Source of the DNA: a virus
Taxonomy: Duplodnaviria; Heunggongvirae; Uroviricota; Caudoviricetes
DNA length: 4,454 nt
Direction: 5' to 3' (one strand)
Virus record (IMG/VR): IMGVR_UViG_2728369553_000002
The position numbers and the translations under genes were made by a program. Within the stretch, counting starts at the first letter, position 1. Each line of letters starts with the position of its first letter. The notes below the pieces were generated by a model, which did no database searches, was not told the origin of the DNA, and saw nothing but the letters and a program-made list of their open reading frames with translations. Shown in pieces: positions 1 through 4,454 of the stretch.

Positions 1-980
1 CCCACCAGCTCACCGGTCTGCGTGGGACGTGCCGGATCGTTGCGAATAAACACCGCTGCGCGGGCGGTACGGCTTGCCGCCAGTTCGTCGGCAGGCGTCT
101 GGGTCTCTTTTTCGTACCCCGCCAGGGTAATGTGCTGCTGGTTAAACTGGTCACCTGCGGTCACCAGTTCTGACAGCGTGCCGATCTTTGCCGTATACAC
201 ATGACCATACAGCTGACGCGCATAGCTCCAGCGACCGCTGGTATCGTTCATCTCGGTCACCAGCGTGTTAACGGAGGCCGTGTCGTTGAACGGCAGGCCG
301 ATATAATCAAACGGCTCATCCGCCATTGCAGCCACCACGCCGGTGAGAACCGGAGCACCCGTTCCGGCGGTACCCGTCGCCACGGCAATCTGTACGCCCG
401 CTGGCAGCACTTCGCCCCCACCAAAGCCGTAGTAATTGAGGCTGACAGGAATTTCATTCCCGCAAAGCCCCTTATGACGCGCGGTCAGTGTGACCACACC
501 TGCCGAAGATGAAGCCGTAAACGGCAGGGCCGGAACGGCATTGATGGCATCTTTGATACTGCTGGCAATCGTCGTGACGTTATCGCCGTTGGTCACCGGA
601 GCCTGCACGCGGGTACGTCCCACATAGACATTCACCGTGCCGCTTTCGGTTGCTTCCCCGGTCACCGTCAGCGTAACCGTTGCCGCCGCGCCTGTGGCTT
701 CCGGAACGGCAATCACATACAGCTCACCAAACGGGTCGGTCTGGCGATAAGCCTCGACCATACGCGCCAGCTGACTTCCCGCACCACAAATCTGGCGTGC
801 ATAGTCTGCCGACGGCATCAGCACCAGACTGTTGGCAACAATCTCTGCACCGTTATTGGCATGACCAATCAGCAGCGATGCTCCGCTGTCCTGTGCAGTA
901 TTCGCAGCCTGGTTATCCATTTCCGCATAAAACAGCGGAACCAGCGTATTCGACGGAATGGTGTTAAAGCTTATCGTCAT
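1..980 (-). CDS. Probable phage tail sheath protein (contractile tail), 5' portion; ORF continues past the window start
   Basis: ATG at 978-980 with Shine-Dalgarno AGGTGA at 987-992 (6-nt spacer). I translated the minus strand by hand from 980 down to position 3 and found no in-frame stop (326 codons, MTISFNTIPSNTLVPLFYAEMDNQ...). Not in the ORF track because it has no stop inside the window. Length of at least 326 aa and position directly after a tail completion gene fit a sheath rather than a tube protein; the family assignment itself is inference. Confidence 0.6.
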   Translation of the reverse strand, partial: MTISFNTIPSNTLVPLFYAEMDNQAANTAQDSGASLLIGHANNGAEIVANSLVLMPSADYARQICGAGSQLARMVEAYRQTDPFGELYVIAVPEATGAAATVTLTVTGEATESGTVNVYVGRTRVQAPVTNGDNVTTIASSIKDAINAVPALPFTASSSAGVVTLTARHKGLCGNEIPVSLNYYGFGGGEVLPAGVQIAVATGTAGTGAPVLTGVVAAMADEPFDYIGLPFNDTASVNTLVTEMNDTSGRWSYARQLYGHVYTAKIGTLSELVTAGDQFNQQHITLAGYEKETQTPADELAASRTARAAVFIRNDPARPTQTGELV

Positions 981-1057
981 CGGTGTTCACCTTTTTATTC
1001 ACGCGCCGGATATCACCCGCTGCTTCACGGCGCAGCCAGTAGTTGTTCTCGTCAACA

Positions 1058-1113
1058 TTTCGCCCTTCGGCGGGCAAAAGGTCGCTGCGGGCAGGGTCAG
1101 GCACTGACCGCCC
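1058..1113 (-). promoter_or_regulatory. Two adjacent stem-loops in the 162-bp intergenic region between the tail completion gene and the sheath gene
   Basis: 1089-1113: GGGCAGGGTCAG / loop GCA / CTGACCGCCC (6-bp perfect core stem plus a 4-bp GGGC/GCCC extension with a 2-nt bulge). 1058-1079: GCCC / loop TTCGGC / GGGC flanked by partly paired TTT/AAA. This is the only sizeable non-coding gap in the operon. Confidence 0.4.
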
Positions 1114-1142
1114 TTTAACAGGTTTCACAAACATGAGGATCC

Positions 1143-1619
1143 TCAGGAAGGAATGGTTATTTCTGTGTGATGTTCGATATCGCCGTCAGGCCCGTTACCT
1201 GGATCGAGATAATCAACATCAATCGCCAGCGTTTGCAGTTCATCCAGACTGTTCAGATCATCCTGCTGGCGGGTATCGTCTTCAGTCAGCTNNNNNNNNN
1301 NTTCCGGGTTCCAGCCCAGCAGGGCCTTAAAGAGCATCTGCCGGACATCGTCCACCACATCATACGAGGCAAACTGACCGCGCTCATCACGCCCGTTACT
1401 CAGTATGACAACCACGGAGAAGCCCTCTTTCAGCTCCTGCCAGTAGTCGGTCTGGCTTTTGTTTTCTCCCGGAGAGTCATCACCCGGTACCACATACGCC
1501 GCCGGGAGTCTCAGCTTTCCGACCTCCGGCAGATTTTTGAACTGTGCCGCGCCTGCCACCCGGTTTTCAAAATACGGGCAGCGGGCACGCAGCGCAGCAA
1601 TAACAGGCGTCAGTTTCAT
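1143..1619 (-). CDS. Phage tail completion/terminator-like protein (Mu gp37 / DUF1834-like), copy 1, interrupted by an N-run
   Basis: 158-aa ORF in the track with XXXX at the 1292-1301 N-run; otherwise near-identical to the intact 186-aa copy at 1979-2539. The N-run stands in for about 94 nt present in copy 2. Start ATG 1617-1619 overlaps the stop of the upstream reading frame (ATGA). Confidence 0.5.
   Translation of the reverse strand: MKLTPVIAALRARCPYFENRVAGAAQFKNLPEVGKLRLPAAYVVPGDDSPGENKSQTDYWQELKEGFSVVVILSNGRDERGQFASYDVVDDVRQMLFKALLGWNPEXXXXLTEDDTRQQDDLNSLDELQTLAIDVDYLDPGNGPDGDIEHHTEITIPS
1292..1301. other. Assembly gap (10 N)
   Basis: Run of N; by comparison with copy 2 it replaces about 94 nt of the tail completion gene. 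Confidence 0.95.
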
Positions 1620-1681
1620 CTGTGTCGTCGCTCCGGCTTCAGTGATTTACGCAATTCCCGCGCCAGAAAATAGCGTGTCCA

Positions 1682-1691
1682 NNNNNNNNNN
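1682..1691. other. Assembly gap (10 N) exactly at the junction between the two repeat copies
   Basis: Sequence before the N-run matches the 3' end of the gp10-like gene (as at 2540-2601); sequence after it matches codon ~41 of the sheath gene (as at 857 onward). Confidence 0.95.
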
Positions 1692-1816
1692 CTGGCATGA
1701 CCAATCAGCAGCGATGCTCCGCTGTCCTGTGCAGTATTCGCCGCCTGGTTATCCATTTCCGCATAAAACAGCGGAACCAGCGTATTCGACGGAATGGTGT
1801 TAAAGCTTATCGTCAT
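1692..1816 (-). pseudogene. Duplicated 5' fragment of the sheath gene (first ~41 codons), truncated at the N-run
   Basis: ATG at 1814-1816 with the same AGGTGA Shine-Dalgarno at 1823-1828; encodes MTISFNTIPSNTLVPLFYAEMDNQAANTAQDSGASLLIGHA, identical to the N-terminus of the 1-980 gene. The track ORF 1616-1816 fuses it across the N-run to the last 21 codons of the gp10-like frame. Confidence 0.55.
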
Positions 1817-1893
1817 CGGTGTTCACCTTTTTATTCACGCGCCGGATATCACCCGCTACTTCACGGCGCAGCCAGTAGTTGTTCTCGTCAACA

Positions 1894-1949
1894 TTTCGCC
1901 CTTCGGCGGGCAAAAGGTCGCCGCGGGCAGGGTCAGGAACTGACCGCCC
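1894..1949 (-). promoter_or_regulatory. Second copy of the intergenic stem-loop pair
   Basis: 1925-1949: GGGCAGGGTCAG / loop GAA / CTGACCGCCC. Stem identical to copy 1; the loop differs by one base (GCA vs GAA). Confidence 0.4.
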
Positions 1950-1978
1950 TTTAACAGGTTTCACAAACATGAGGATCC

Positions 1979-2539
1979 TCAGGAAGGAAGGGTTATTTCG
2001 GTGTGATGTTCGATATCGCCGTCAGGCCCGTTACCGGGCTCGAGATAATCAACATCAATCGCCAGCGTTTGCAGTTCATCCAGACTGTTCAGATCATCCT
2101 GCTGGCGGGTATCGTCTTCAGTCAGCTCGCTGATGACCGAAAAATCGAACTGATAAATCAGCTCATGACGATTCAGATCCAGCAGCGTGCCGCCGTCATA
2201 GGTAATCGGGTTACCGCACGCCTCCGGGTTCCAGCCCAGCAGAGCCTTAAAGAGCATCTGCCGGACATCGTCCACCACATCATACGAGGCAAACTGACCG
2301 CGCTCATCACGCCCGTTACTCAGTATGACAACCACGGAGAAACCCTCTTTCAGCGCCTGCCAGTAGTCGGTCTGGCTTTTGTTTTCTCCCGGAGAATCAT
2401 CACCCGGTACAACATATGCCGCCGGGAGTTTCAGCTTTCCGACCTCCGGCAGATTTTTGAACTGGGCCGCACCTGCAACCCGGTTTTCAAAATACGGACA
2501 GCGGGCACGCAGTGCAGCAATAACAGGCGTCAGTTTCAT
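1979..2539 (-). CDS. Phage tail completion/terminator-like protein (Mu gp37 / DUF1834-like), intact copy
   Basis: 186-aa ORF. N-terminus MKLTPVIAALRARCPYFENRVAGAAQF...LPAAYVVPGDD fits the general pattern I associate with tail completion/terminator proteins. Start ATG 2537-2539 overlaps the gp10-like stop at 2536-2538 (ATGA coupling). Sits between head-completion genes and the sheath. Family assignment is from memory of motifs, not a search. Confidence 0.6.
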   Translation of the reverse strand: MKLTPVIAALRARCPYFENRVAGAAQFKNLPEVGKLKLPAAYVVPGDDSPGENKSQTDYWQALKEGFSVVVILSNGRDERGQFASYDVVDDVRQMLFKALLGWNPEACGNPITYDGGTLLDLNRHELIYQFDFSVISELTEDDTRQQDDLNSLDELQTLAIDVDYLEPGNGPDGDIEHHTEITLPS

Positions 2540-3103
2540 CTGTGTCGTCGCTCCGGCTTCAGTGATTTACGCAATTCCCGCGCCAGAAAATAGCGTGTCC
2601 AGCTGCGGTTCTTTTCAAGCGTTTCCATCATGAAGTTATTACGTGGAGCCAGTCGCCAGCCGCTGCCACCGGATGCACCACGATGATGGCTGCGACGACG
2701 CTTTGCCCCTCGCCTCACGCCATAGAACAAAAAAGCCGGATAAAAATCACCAGTGATACGGCGGTTTCCCTCTCCATTACGCTGGTTAGGGGCTATACGT
2801 GCCATAAAACCAGGGCGATGTTTACTGGCTCTGGGTACCATGTAACCAATCGAACGAGCCAGGCGTCCGGTCTGATAACCGGGGTTTTCACCCGGTGCCG
2901 ACCGCGCACGGCGCATCACCAGCCGACGGGNNNNNNNNNNNNNNNNNNNNNNNNNNNNNNNNNNNNNNNNNNNNNNNNNNNNNNNNNNNNNNNNNNNNNN
3001 NNNNNNNNNNACCAATCGTGACAAACGCCCGCCGGACACGGGCGCGGTTAAAGCGCATCTCCGTGGGCTGCTGAAAATCAACGTGCAAAAAGGAAGTCGC
3101 CAT
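2536..3103 (-). CDS. HK97 gp10-like head-tail joining / virion morphogenesis protein, interrupted by an 80-N gap
   Basis: ATG at 3101-3103 preceded by GGAGG at 3109-3113 (5-nt spacer); N-terminus MATSFLHVDFQQPTEMRFNRARVRRAFVTIG. After the gap the frame ending at stop 2536-2538 encodes ...QTGRLARSIGYMV...DFYPAFLFYGVRRG...APRNNFMMETL, resembling the TG-L-SI ... YA-E-GT ... PF-PA pattern of gp10-family proteins. The two sides are in different frames as written, so true gap length and gene length are unknown. Confidence 0.5.
2931..3010. other. Assembly gap (80 N) inside the gp10-like gene
   Basis: Run of N; reading frame differs across it. Confidence 0.95.
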
Positions 3104-3488
3104 TGCTGCCTCCGTGACTCTGCCTACATTCGCCCAGCTCCGTACACTCCAGCAGCAGAAAGCGCCGCGCTCCGTTCAGATCGCGCTGACGTTTCACCCG
3201 GTACACACTGTCACCGCAGACCACCTCATAATCAGAGGTGATCCCCCGGCGGTAACGAATGGTGATGTAATGGGTGATGGCGTCTCCGGTCTGCGCGGTT
3301 TCCTGCCAGGTGGTGGCACTGGTCTGGATAACCTTCGCCCATGTACTGAACGCAACCGGGTATTGAGGCTCCACGCCAAAGTTATCTGCGGGCATATCCA
3401 CCCGCTGGCGGATCAGGACGCGTTTATTCAGTTCACCGGGGTCCGGCAGAATGTAGGTTGCGCTGGTCTGTGCCTGGCTAATTTTCAT
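3078..3488 (-). CDS. Phage head closure / head-tail adaptor protein (Phage_H_T_join-like)
   Basis: 136-aa ORF. Core WAKVIQTSATTWQETAQTGDAITHYITIRYRRGITSDYEVVCGDSVYRVKRQRDLNGARRFLLLECTEL matches the characteristic adaptor pattern (WA-v ... IRYR ... Y-v ... L-L-C-E). Start ATG 3486-3488 overlaps the connector stop at 3485-3487 (ATGA). Confidence 0.75.
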   Translation of the reverse strand: MKISQAQTSATYILPDPGELNKRVLIRQRVDMPADNFGVEPQYPVAFSTWAKVIQTSATTWQETAQTGDAITHYITIRYRRGITSDYEVVCGDSVYRVKRQRDLNGARRFLLLECTELGECRQSHGGSNGDFLFAR

Positions 3489-3808
3489 TGCGGAAAGTAC
3501 CTGTACGGGCTGACAAGCCAGCCAAAACTCTGCGGCATGTCGAGTTTCTCCACTTCCGTAACCGACGAGCGGTTTTCGTAAAAGTGGCTGATAAGCATCA
3601 GCATCCCAAGACGAATATCATCCGGCAGGTGCAGCCCGTCCGGATCGCTGTCCGGAATGGATTCATCCGGTGCATAGAGCTTCCGGTTCAGATACGTTTC
3701 CGTCCGCTTTTGCGCCGCACAGGCCAGCAGTTGCAGATGGCGGTCATCGGCATCGAAATCCTCATCCAGCCGGAGTTGGGCTTTAATCTCTTCCAGTGTC
3801 AGAAGCAT
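3485..3808 (-). CDS. Phage gp6-like head-tail connector protein
   Basis: MLLTLEEIKAQLRLDEDFDADDRHLQLL... is the typical N-terminus of gp6-like connector proteins. I place the start at ATG 3806-3808 (GAGGG at 3815-3819, 6-nt spacer) rather than the track's upstream ATG at 3812-3814, which has no spacer after the Shine-Dalgarno. Confidence 0.75.
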   Translation of the reverse strand: MLLTLEEIKAQLRLDEDFDADDRHLQLLACAAQKRTETYLNRKLYAPDESIPDSDPDGLHLPDDIRLGMLMLISHFYENRSSVTEVEKLDMPQSFGWLVSPYRYFPQ

Positions 3809-4010
3809 TCTCATCCCTCTTTACTGGCCGTGGCTTTTTCTCTTTTGCCGCTTTACTGCTTTTTGCACTGGTTCCGCGCTCTGCTAACCCGGCCTGAAGT
3901 GCAATCTCCTGCACCCGGGCAGGAAGCGCCCCGTCGTCATACTCACCGGCCCGAATGACCTCAACACGCATACCGTCCGGTGACCATTTAAGATCTTGTT
4001 TCAGGATCAT
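3783..4010 (-). CDS. Hypothetical small protein (75 aa) between the capsid and connector genes; function unknown
   Basis: ATG at 4008-4010 with GGGTGA at 4017-4022 (6-nt spacer). Codon usage looks enterobacterial (CTG, AAA, CCG, GGT, CGT). Acidic N-terminal half and a Lys-rich tail (SAKSSKAAKEKKPRPVKR). Its last ~26 nt overlap the connector start in another frame. I recognise no family. Confidence 0.45.
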   Translation of the reverse strand: MILKQDLKWSPDGMRVEVIRAGEYDDGALPARVQEIALQAGLAERGTSAKSSKAAKEKKPRPVKRDENASDTGRD

Positions 4011-4033
4011 GATTCTTCACCCTTCAGAACAGG

Positions 4034-4051
4034 GGGCGCGGAACCGCGCCC
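4034..4051 (-). promoter_or_regulatory. GC-rich stem-loop just downstream of the capsid stop codon (possible partial terminator or mRNA 3' stabiliser)
   Basis: Perfect inverted repeat GGGCGCGG / AA / CCGCGCCC on the plus strand (8-bp stem, or 7 bp with a 4-nt loop), 9 nt after the capsid stop as read on the minus strand. It is followed on the transcript by CCUGUUCUG, not a clean U-tract. Confidence 0.4.
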
Positions 4052-4059
4052 ATGAGCGA

Positions 4060-4454
4060 TTACTTCTCTGCAATCTTCAGCAGTTTGATGGCCTGCGAAT
4101 CGACCAGCATTCCGCCGGTGCGCTTGGTGGTATAAAAACCGACAAACGGTTTATTGGTGTACGGGTCACGCAGAATGCGGGTGCCGATACGGTCAACGAT
4201 GGTGTAACCCCGTTTGAAGTTACCAAATGCGATGGCTTTCGCATCCGCAGCAATATCCGGCATCTGTTCGTTTTCAGCAATACCGTACCCCAGCAGAGAA
4301 GAAGGCTGCCCCAGTTCCAGCCCCGGACGCCACAGATAGTTACCCTCGTTGTCTTTCAACAGACGAATGGCAAACAGGCTGTTGTTGTTCATCATGAACT
4401 TCGCGCCAGTGCGGTGTGCCTTACGCAGCGTGTAAATCAGTTTGATAATGGCGT
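4060..4454 (-). CDS. Phage major capsid protein, C-terminal portion; ORF continues past the window end
   Basis: Stop TAA at 4060-4062. My translation stays open upstream of the track's Met through the window end (...AIIKLIYTLRKAHRTGAKFMMNNNSLFAIRLL...). C-terminal sequence ...RDPYTNKPFVGFYTTKRTGGMLVDSQAIKLLKIAEK and position immediately upstream of the connector gene fit a major capsid protein. Confidence 0.7.
   Translation of the reverse strand, partial: AIIKLIYTLRKAHRTGAKFMMNNNSLFAIRLLKDNEGNYLWRPGLELGQPSSLLGYGIAENEQMPDIAADAKAIAFGNFKRGYTIVDRIGTRILRDPYTNKPFVGFYTTKRTGGMLVDSQAIKLLKIAEK

Follow-up and report, generated by a model that had tools for sequence, protein, structure and literature searches.

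The question raised by this locus is whether a prophage carries part of its neck and tail operon twice. In the window analysed here (4,454 nt, the entire NCBI draft contig LRXV01000150.1 of assembly GCA_001571685.1), a 0.83-kb direct repeat suggests that it does. The repeat is an assembly artefact and not biology, and the extra tail genes are false. It is almost certainly a false heterotype duplication that arose when a short-read de Bruijn-graph assembler and its scaffolder handled two related SfII/SfV-like prophage alleles. This reading is carried by the single-copy structure of the locus in nature, by its two-allele composition, and by piece boundaries that coincide exactly with graph nodes at k = 89.

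The window consists of four assembly pieces (A, B, C and D) separated by three N-runs:

1-1291: piece A, with the 5' 980 nt of the sheath gene, DUF2635 copy 1 and the 3' part of the tail terminator 'copy 1'
1292-1301: N-run 1 (10 N), inside copy 1, a proxy for a 94-nt shared node that is written once, at 2128-2221
1302-1681: piece B, the allele-B branch, with the 5' portion of the terminator gene and the final 62 nt of the 168-aa gene
1682-1691: N-run 2 (10 N), between copy 1 and copy 2, the false duplication junction of pieces B and C
1692-2930: piece C, with a 5' stub of the sheath gene, DUF2635 copy 2, the complete tail terminator and the 3' part of the 168-aa gene
2931-3010: N-run 3 (80 N), inside the 168-aa gene, with a true content of 19 nt
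3011-4454: piece D, with the start of the 168-aa gene, head closure, head-tail connector, small ORF and the 3' end of the capsid gene

The geometry given in the preliminary description, a repeat of 857-1681 at 1693-2601, holds on re-alignment. Positions 857-1291 differ from 1693-2127 at 8 of 435 sites, and 1302-1681 from 2222-2601 at 13 of 380 (position 1302 included). The earlier count of about 21 differences in about 815 positions, with mixed transitions and transversions, is thereby reproduced (11 transitions and 10 transversions). The true homology starts one base earlier, at a T/C difference (856/1692), giving 22/816. With 97.4% identity across 0.8 kb, the copies far exceed chance similarity. 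Copy 1 lacks 94 nt of copy 2 (2128-2221) and has a 10-N run at 1292-1301 in their place, as had been described. The second 10-N run, at 1682-1691, does mark the reported jump from the gp10-like gene into the sheath gene: at 1681/1692 the sequence passes from the 168-aa gene, 66 nt (22 codons) short of its end, to sheath codon 42. The repeat starts on the first inter-copy SNP (856/1692) and ends 88 nt past the last one (1593/2513).

The genes duplicated here belong to a neck-tail operon and are a tail terminator, a DUF2635 gene and a stub of the sheath gene. The annotated features of the window are:

1-980, minus strand: 5' 980 nt of the tail sheath gene (PF04984/PF17481)
964-1134, minus strand: DUF2635 gene, copy 1, 56 aa (PF10948)
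1143-1291, minus strand: 3' part of the tail terminator 'copy 1'
1692-1816: 5' stub of the sheath gene, a false second start, in piece C
1800-1970, minus strand: DUF2635 gene, copy 2, 56 aa (PF10948)
1979-2539, minus strand: complete tail terminator gene, 186 aa (PF23840)
2536-3103, minus strand: 168-aa neck gene, interrupted by the 80-N gap
3078-3488, minus strand: head closure gene (PF05521)
3485-3808/3814, minus strand: head-tail connector gene (PF05135)
3783-4010, minus strand: small ORF
4060-4454, minus strand: 3' end of the major capsid gene

The preliminary description had listed a tail completion gene, intergenic stem-loops and the sheath start as the duplicated content. The sheath start is retained here. 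The duplicated 186-aa gene matches PF23840 (92.5 bits) and is a phage tail terminator rather than a tail completion gene. The stretch taken for intergenic stem-loops is in fact the 56-aa DUF2635 gene (PF10948, 57-58 bits at a cutoff of 26.6), which follows the terminator gene at a distance of 8 nt and has a 17-nt overlap with the sheath start. It is the 168-aa gene that carries the RefSeq label 'tail completion or Neck1 protein' in phage SfII; a Pfam search with its product gave no match.

Two natural loci account for the sequence of all four pieces. The prophage locus of E. coli ECONIH4 (L001) supplies the reference coordinates and the locus of IMG/VR UViG 2563366951_000001 (L120) serves as reference for the second allele. 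Piece A aligns to L001 3001-4291 with 3 mismatches (337, 856 and 906), each of them the L120 allele, and its end at 1291 is a k = 89 node end, 88 nt past the final allelic site at 1203. Piece B is allelic to 2222-2601; its first base is the allelic site 1302 and its last base lies 88 nt past 1593. Two natural loci, L059 and L127, match it at 100% identity. At 13 of 13 variable sites it has the L120 allele, and it differs from ECONIH4 by 12 mismatches in 379 aligned nt, plus site 1302. Piece C begins on the allelic site 1692, ends 88 nt past the allelic site 2842, and shows 7 mismatches to L001 3856-5094, all within 1858-2039 and all L120 alleles. Piece D, whose first base is the allelic site 3011, is 100% identical to L001 5114-6557. 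On these coordinates pieces B (L001 4386-4765) and C (L001 3856-5094) are not adjacent: they overlap by 380 nt, with B lying entirely within C.

Every called base of the window (4354/4354) agrees with L001 or with L120 at the homologous position, and none is foreign to both; the L120-only allele occurs at 23 sites. The A at position 337 is rare, being found in 1 of 95 natural loci, and that one is L120. The sites at which the two copies differ are polymorphic among approximately 120 natural loci, none of them being private to the window. Allele A is approximately 100% identical to the ECONIH4 prophage, and allele B is nearly identical to L120.

As assembled, the copies show at least 7 mismatches in 910 nt against every complete E. 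coli genome. Exchanging the blocks 965-1291 and 1801-2127 leaves 0 mismatches to ECONIH4 and 1 to L120. Each copy is likely a chimera in which the phase changes from one allele to the other within the identical stretch 907-1021; this switch is regarded as no more than likely because two short-read metagenome/Logan contigs (L129 and L131) match copy 2 as assembled with 2 mismatches. For the same reason re-phasing, strong as it is (from 7 and 7 to 0 and 1), was not kept as decisive proof. A 'chimeric' 134-mer considered as a scaffold-unique marker was likewise discarded, as L102 and L127 carry it too, site 3906 not being diagnostic. We note that the matches of L129 and L131 leave the verdict of an artefact unaffected.

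The piece boundaries follow from the arithmetic of the graph. In a simulated de Bruijn graph of L001 versus L120, with coordinates given as the last base of each k-mer, the nodes at k = 89 are limited at 3856, 4291/4292, 4385/4386, 4765, 5094/5095, 5113/5114 and 6557. These limits coincide exactly with the ends of the pieces inside the contig, six in number, and with its right end (4454 of the window). A scan of odd k from 21 to 127 was run on three internal piece ends, which fit only k = 89; the right contig end agrees in the k = 89 run. The left contig end (reference 3001) is not predicted with L120 as proxy, and a polymorphism at reference 3001 or 3089 as its cause gave no fit. The graph also accounts for what is missing. 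The true interval under the gap at 1292-1301 is L001 4292-4385, and these 94 nt form a shared node in the simulated k = 89 graph. The sequence beneath the 80-N run, L001 5095-5113, is CATCACGCATATGACGCTG, exactly a shared node of 19 k-mers. Because the 80-N gap is 61 nt oversized, the reading frame of the 168-aa gene is broken.

Relatives of the window carry the region once. In the top-scoring complete E. coli genomes the 4,454 nt align onto 3,557 nt in single copy, and at least 80% of the window is present in 834 complete E. coli genomes. Phages SfII, SfI and SfIV match across approximately 3,557-3,590 nt, also in single copy, and the corresponding region of SfV is likewise single copy. The identical 186-aa terminator is encoded on nine other contigs, all with the single-copy gene order. 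None of the fetched IMG/VR loci has N-runs and none has both alleles; the matches are natural single-copy alleles. As a probe for the junction we used a synthetic sequence joining 1562-1681 to 1692-1811, scored as positive where at least 80% of it is covered by one place. Of 5426 complete E. coli genomes none scored positive, although 1076 contain both halves at separate locations. Among genome contigs, a degenerate pattern fitting either allele had 0 hits. No publication on LRXV or the GCA accession came up in a literature search.

The account of these observations that we regard as almost certain runs as follows. The sequenced DNA would have contained two closely related SfII/SfV-like prophage alleles, A and B, giving rise to graph bubbles where the alleles differ and to shared nodes where they are identical over at least 89 nt. 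The assembler would have retained both branches of several bubbles, with read pairs tying all retained branches to identical neighbours. Unable to overlap the branches, the scaffolder would have placed A, B, C and D serially with minimum-length N gaps, and each shared node would have been used a single time. From this single use would arise both the 94-nt deficit of copy 1 and the 19-nt deficit beneath the 80-N run. Gaps written by Velvet are at least 10 N long. The assembler was probably Velvet or a similar program, since the pieces open on a variant and stop 88 nt after one. Velvet names a node by the final nucleotides of its k-mers (PMC3488206), and the pattern fits such labels. The suggestion of the preliminary description that the repeat reflects scaffolding redundancy between two prophage alleles is supported by the two-allele composition, the k = 89 boundaries and the absence of the junction from 5426 genomes. 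Its proposed route, overlapping contig ends joined without being merged, gives way to bubble branches of two alleles with shared nodes used once. In the real operon of either prophage, the 168-aa neck gene, the tail terminator, the DUF2635 gene and the sheath gene each occur a single time.

The preliminary description had also allowed for a real tandem duplication, in which one prophage would carry, twice in succession, a segment reaching from codon 42 of the sheath gene to the final 22 codons of the 168-aa gene. Under this reading the tail terminator and DUF2635 genes would both be doubled. The scaffolder did join the pieces in that order and the Ns conceal the junction, but we consider a real duplication very improbable. 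The junction is unsequenced and absent from the 5426 complete genomes, and every natural relative examined is single copy. A novel junction would moreover consist of unique k-mers, which are expected to assemble rather than to yield an N-run. The limits of the duplicated block coincide with the positions of inter-copy SNPs instead of being independent of them; as they fall on the first SNP and on the last SNP plus 88 nt, they are set by k-mer arithmetic and are not recombination endpoints. Every inter-copy difference is a pre-existing natural allele, which argues against divergence in situ. There is likewise only a very slight chance that the tandem segment (terminator, DUF2635 and sheath start) was born by recombination between co-resident SfII-like prophages, with a junction that the assembler did not read. 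A homotype false duplication, in which a single allele is under-collapsed through sequencing errors, would also leave two repeat copies parted by a gap. Errors are expected to be random and private, whereas all 22 of the 22 differences are natural polymorphisms grouped on known haplotypes, none of them private, and this origin has a negligible probability.

A different matter is where the two alleles of the false heterotype duplication came from. The same artefact would arise if they belonged to two strains sequenced together, whether because the culture was mixed or contaminated or because the assembly was a metagenome bin; the graph signature is identical for either origin and the window cannot separate them. 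We regard two strains as an unlikely source. Multiple prophages of this family are common (1528 places in 1302 complete genomes, with up to 4 per genome). The contig, number 150, belongs to an ordinary NCBI genome assembly, and a whole-genome mixture of strains would normally shatter into far more contigs. The alleles most likely come from a single E. coli or Shigella genome with two prophages.

False duplications of this kind have been described for other assemblies. Criteria published for them include a gap that separates the two copies within a scaffold, and haplotype-specific k-mers (Ko et al. 2022, Genome Biol 23:205; PMC9516828). The 10-N run at 1682-1691 separates the two copies of the window, with another 10-N run within copy 1, and all differences are L001 or L120 alleles; complete E. 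coli genomes and phage genomes show a single copy. As in that work, allelic versions adjoin on one scaffold with a gap between them and result in false gene gains. Unlike the diploid vertebrates studied there, the present case involves two prophages or strains in a bacterial draft, and the node arithmetic can be reconstructed (k = 89). The pieces also behave like those of Velvet-type graphs (PMC3488206), in that their first base is a variant and their last base lies k-1 = 88 nt past one, with short shared nodes dropped or used just once. The lengths of the N-runs do not follow the true distances: 10 N is too short for 94 nt and 80 N too long for 19 nt, so that the account does not yield the gap sizes quantitatively.

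In its content the window is an SfII/SfV-like neck-tail module; 98% of its length aligns to SfII and SfI with 97.1% identity. It resembles SfII, SfI, SfIV, SfV and the matching E. coli prophages at 97% DNA identity, and shares their gene order: capsid, small ORF, connector, head closure, 168-aa neck, terminator, DUF2635 and sheath. Unlike the window, these references carry each gene once, the second set being the artefact. The record LRXV01000150.1 annotates these false gains as a 41-aa sheath stub, a 106-aa truncated terminator fragment and a second DUF2635 gene, together with a broken neck gene that appears as a truncated 130-aa gene at the 80-N gap. Counts of phage genes or of tandem duplications in draft assemblies are misled by such a record. 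No new biology is implied, except that one strain probably harbours two related prophages, a common situation. The arithmetic offers a cheap test that needs no reads: a repeat that extends from the first SNP to the last SNP plus k-1, with N-runs at its seams, is a graph bubble written in series.

The direct repeat of about 0.83 kb is present in the window, as the preliminary description stated, and is an assembly artefact without biological novelty. Because of three N-runs, at 1292-1301 (10 N), 1682-1691 (10 N) and 2931-3010 (80 N), the window is split into four pieces, which map to the prophage locus of E. coli ECONIH4 (L001; allele A) as follows.

Piece A: window 1-1291; L001 3001-4291
Piece B: window 1302-1681; L001 4386-4765
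Piece C: window 1692-2930; L001 3856-5094
Piece D: window 3011-4454; L001 5114-6557

The stretch 857-1291 corresponds to 1693-2127 with 8 mismatches in 435 positions, and 1302-1681 to 2222-2601 with 13 in 380, together 21 of 815 (11 transitions, 10 transversions). The 94 nt at 2128-2221 of copy 2 are missing in copy 1. Homology sets in one base earlier than described (856/1692): 856 (T) pairs with 1692 (C), so that piece C already opens with a difference. On L001, pieces A and C have 436 nt in common, B lies entirely within C, the real spacing between A and B is 94 nt, and that between C and D is 19 nt (CATCACGCATATGACGCTG), against the 80 N written.

In complete genomes and phages the region is single-copy. 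The window is matched in 1302 of 5426 complete E. coli genomes (at least 80% of its length in 834), and in the top-scoring ones its 4454 nt correspond to 3557 nt of genome, hence to one copy. Phages SfII, SfI and SfIV are 97% identical to the window over matched spans of approximately 3557-3590 nt, and phage SfV reaches about 96% in the part it has in common with the window. All nine further contigs that encode an identical terminator protein have the single-copy gene order. A synthetic junction query, composed of 1562-1681 and 1692-1811, was found as one place in none of the 5426 complete E. coli genomes; both halves are present but separate in 1076 of them.

At variable sites, both copies alternate between the allele of ECONIH4 and another one. 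As assembled, each copy has at least 7 mismatches in 910 positions to any complete E. coli genome, and the same minimum holds against 126 natural loci. When block 965-1291 is exchanged with 1801-2127, one re-phased sequence shows no mismatch to ECONIH4; the other has 1 mismatch to the virus record IMGVR_UViG_2563366951_000001 (L120, a proxy for allele B) and 3 to E. coli ECCHD184. Every called base of the window (4354/4354) agrees with ECONIH4 or with L120 at the homologous site, with 0 of 4354 matching neither, and the L120-only allele occurs at 23 sites. Among these alleles, the A at 337 is found in one of 95 natural loci, namely L120, while ECONIH4 and SfII have G, as do 94 of the 95; a simple SNP bubble is the apparent cause, its allele-B branch having been retained within an otherwise allele-A stretch. 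Two short-read metagenome/Logan contigs (L129 and L131; terminator-DUF2635 segment) differ from the assembled copy 2 by only 2 mismatches, for which reason a phase switch between the alleles within 907-1021 is graded as likely but not proven. The two contigs are either natural recombinants of both allele types or short-read assemblies that are chimeric in the same way.

The piece ends follow the same variable sites. Piece A stops 88 nt past its last variable site (1203), piece B begins on a variable site (1302) and stops 88 nt past its last one (1593), and piece C begins on a variable site (1692). A k-mer graph was simulated for the ECONIH4 and L120 alleles.

Nodes of the simulated graph at k=89 (L001 coordinates; a k-mer is placed at its final base)
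Shared nodes: up to 3855; 3995-4021; 4292-4385; 4496-4505; 4766-4791; 5095-5113
Branches: 3856-3994; 4022-4291; 4386-4495; 4506-4765; 4792-5094; 5114-6302; further on, a branch ending at 6557

These limits reproduce all internal piece ends (end of A, 4291; B, 4386-4765; C, 3856-5094; start of D, 5114) as well as the right contig end (6557). Two of the shared nodes, 4292-4385 and 5095-5113, coincide exactly with the 94 nt absent from copy 1 and the 19 nt hidden by the 80-N run. When odd k values between 21 and 127 were scanned against three of the internal piece ends, k=89 alone matched them. With the L120 proxy, no node limit falls on the left contig end (window 1, ref 3001), while the other seven ends fit. 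Polymorphism is not common at ref 3001 or at ref 3089, and L120 may at this end depart from the real allele B, or from a third copy.

Velvet uses the final nucleotides of the k-mers in a node as that node's label (PMC3488206, section 6), and labels of this type give the asymmetry of pieces that start on a variant and end at variant + k-1. The two related prophage alleles would form bubbles in the graph; a Velvet-like assembly with k=89 would have retained both branches of several bubbles, the phases would have crossed at the 27-k-mer shared node, and the scaffolder would then have placed the branches one behind another, separated by placeholder gaps. In Velvet, a gap estimated at less than 10 nt is written as 10 N. 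Among the published marks of a false heterotype duplication are haplotype-specific k-mers and a gap that separates the two members on one scaffold (PMC9516828); the window has both, the gap lying between the two copies. Scaffolding redundancy of two prophage alleles, the reading favoured at the outset, is thus borne out by the two-allele composition, the k=89 node limits and the single copy in nature.

The two alleles might stem from a mixed culture. Carriage of more than one prophage of the SfII/SfV-like family is common, however, with 1528 places in the 1302 matching complete E. coli genomes and up to four per genome, and the assembly behind the contig is of the ordinary isolate type. The alleles therefore more likely derive from two prophages that share one E. 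coli or Shigella genome. The genes are then probably present twice in the source genome, in two separate prophages and not in tandem.

Genes were assigned from the RefSeq annotation of matching prophages and phage SfII, together with a Pfam scan. All are on the minus strand, in the following order.

Major capsid, minus
3783-4010, minus, small ORF
Head-tail connector, minus (PF05135)
Head closure protein, minus (PF05521)
2536-3103, minus, 168-aa neck protein (no Pfam family; 'tail completion or Neck1' in the SfII annotation)
1979-2539, minus, tail terminator, 186 aa (PF23840)
1800-1970 and 964-1134, minus, DUF2635, 56 aa (PF10948)
Tail sheath, minus (PF04984/PF17481)

The gene previously termed tail completion is thus the tail terminator, and the stretch taken for intergenic stem-loops codes for the DUF2635 protein, whose gene shares 17 nt with the sheath start. 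Through the terminator protein (186 aa), the window was recognised as the complete NCBI contig LRXV01000150.1 of assembly GCA_001571685.1, in reverse orientation. Gene calls in its record that result from the assembly artefact are a sheath stub of 41 aa, a terminator fragment of 106 aa, a duplicate DUF2635 gene and a neck gene truncated to 130 aa. The 80-N run is 61 nt too long and, 61 being no multiple of 3, breaks the neck gene. A 181-aa ORF at 2536-3081 was rejected as spurious.

The small ORF has a T5 run at 3835-3839 where SfII has T6. The T5 allele shifts the 3' end of this post-capsid gene, giving 75 aa ending in ...KEKKPRPVKRDENASDTGRD versus 66 aa ending in ...KEKKATTSKEG, and the shifted end overlaps the connector gene. 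The allele also occurs in the complete genome of ECONIH4, where PGAP flags a frameshifted pseudogene; the T5 run is therefore a natural variant and no error of the draft.

Two database records deserve mention. NZ_CP081716.1 (E. coli CX04, 37,667 bp) carries the whole region at 99.5% identity as a separate replicon of a complete assembly whose chromosome (NZ_CP081713.1) carries it too; the record is probably an excised circular phage genome assembled beside the integrated prophage. OR844966.1, 'Enterococcus phage Efm 3-10' (1429 bp), is 86.6% identical to the enterobacterial capsid region at 3373-4440, a level also shown by Salmonella phage ST64B, and its Enterococcus label or host assignment looks doubtful.
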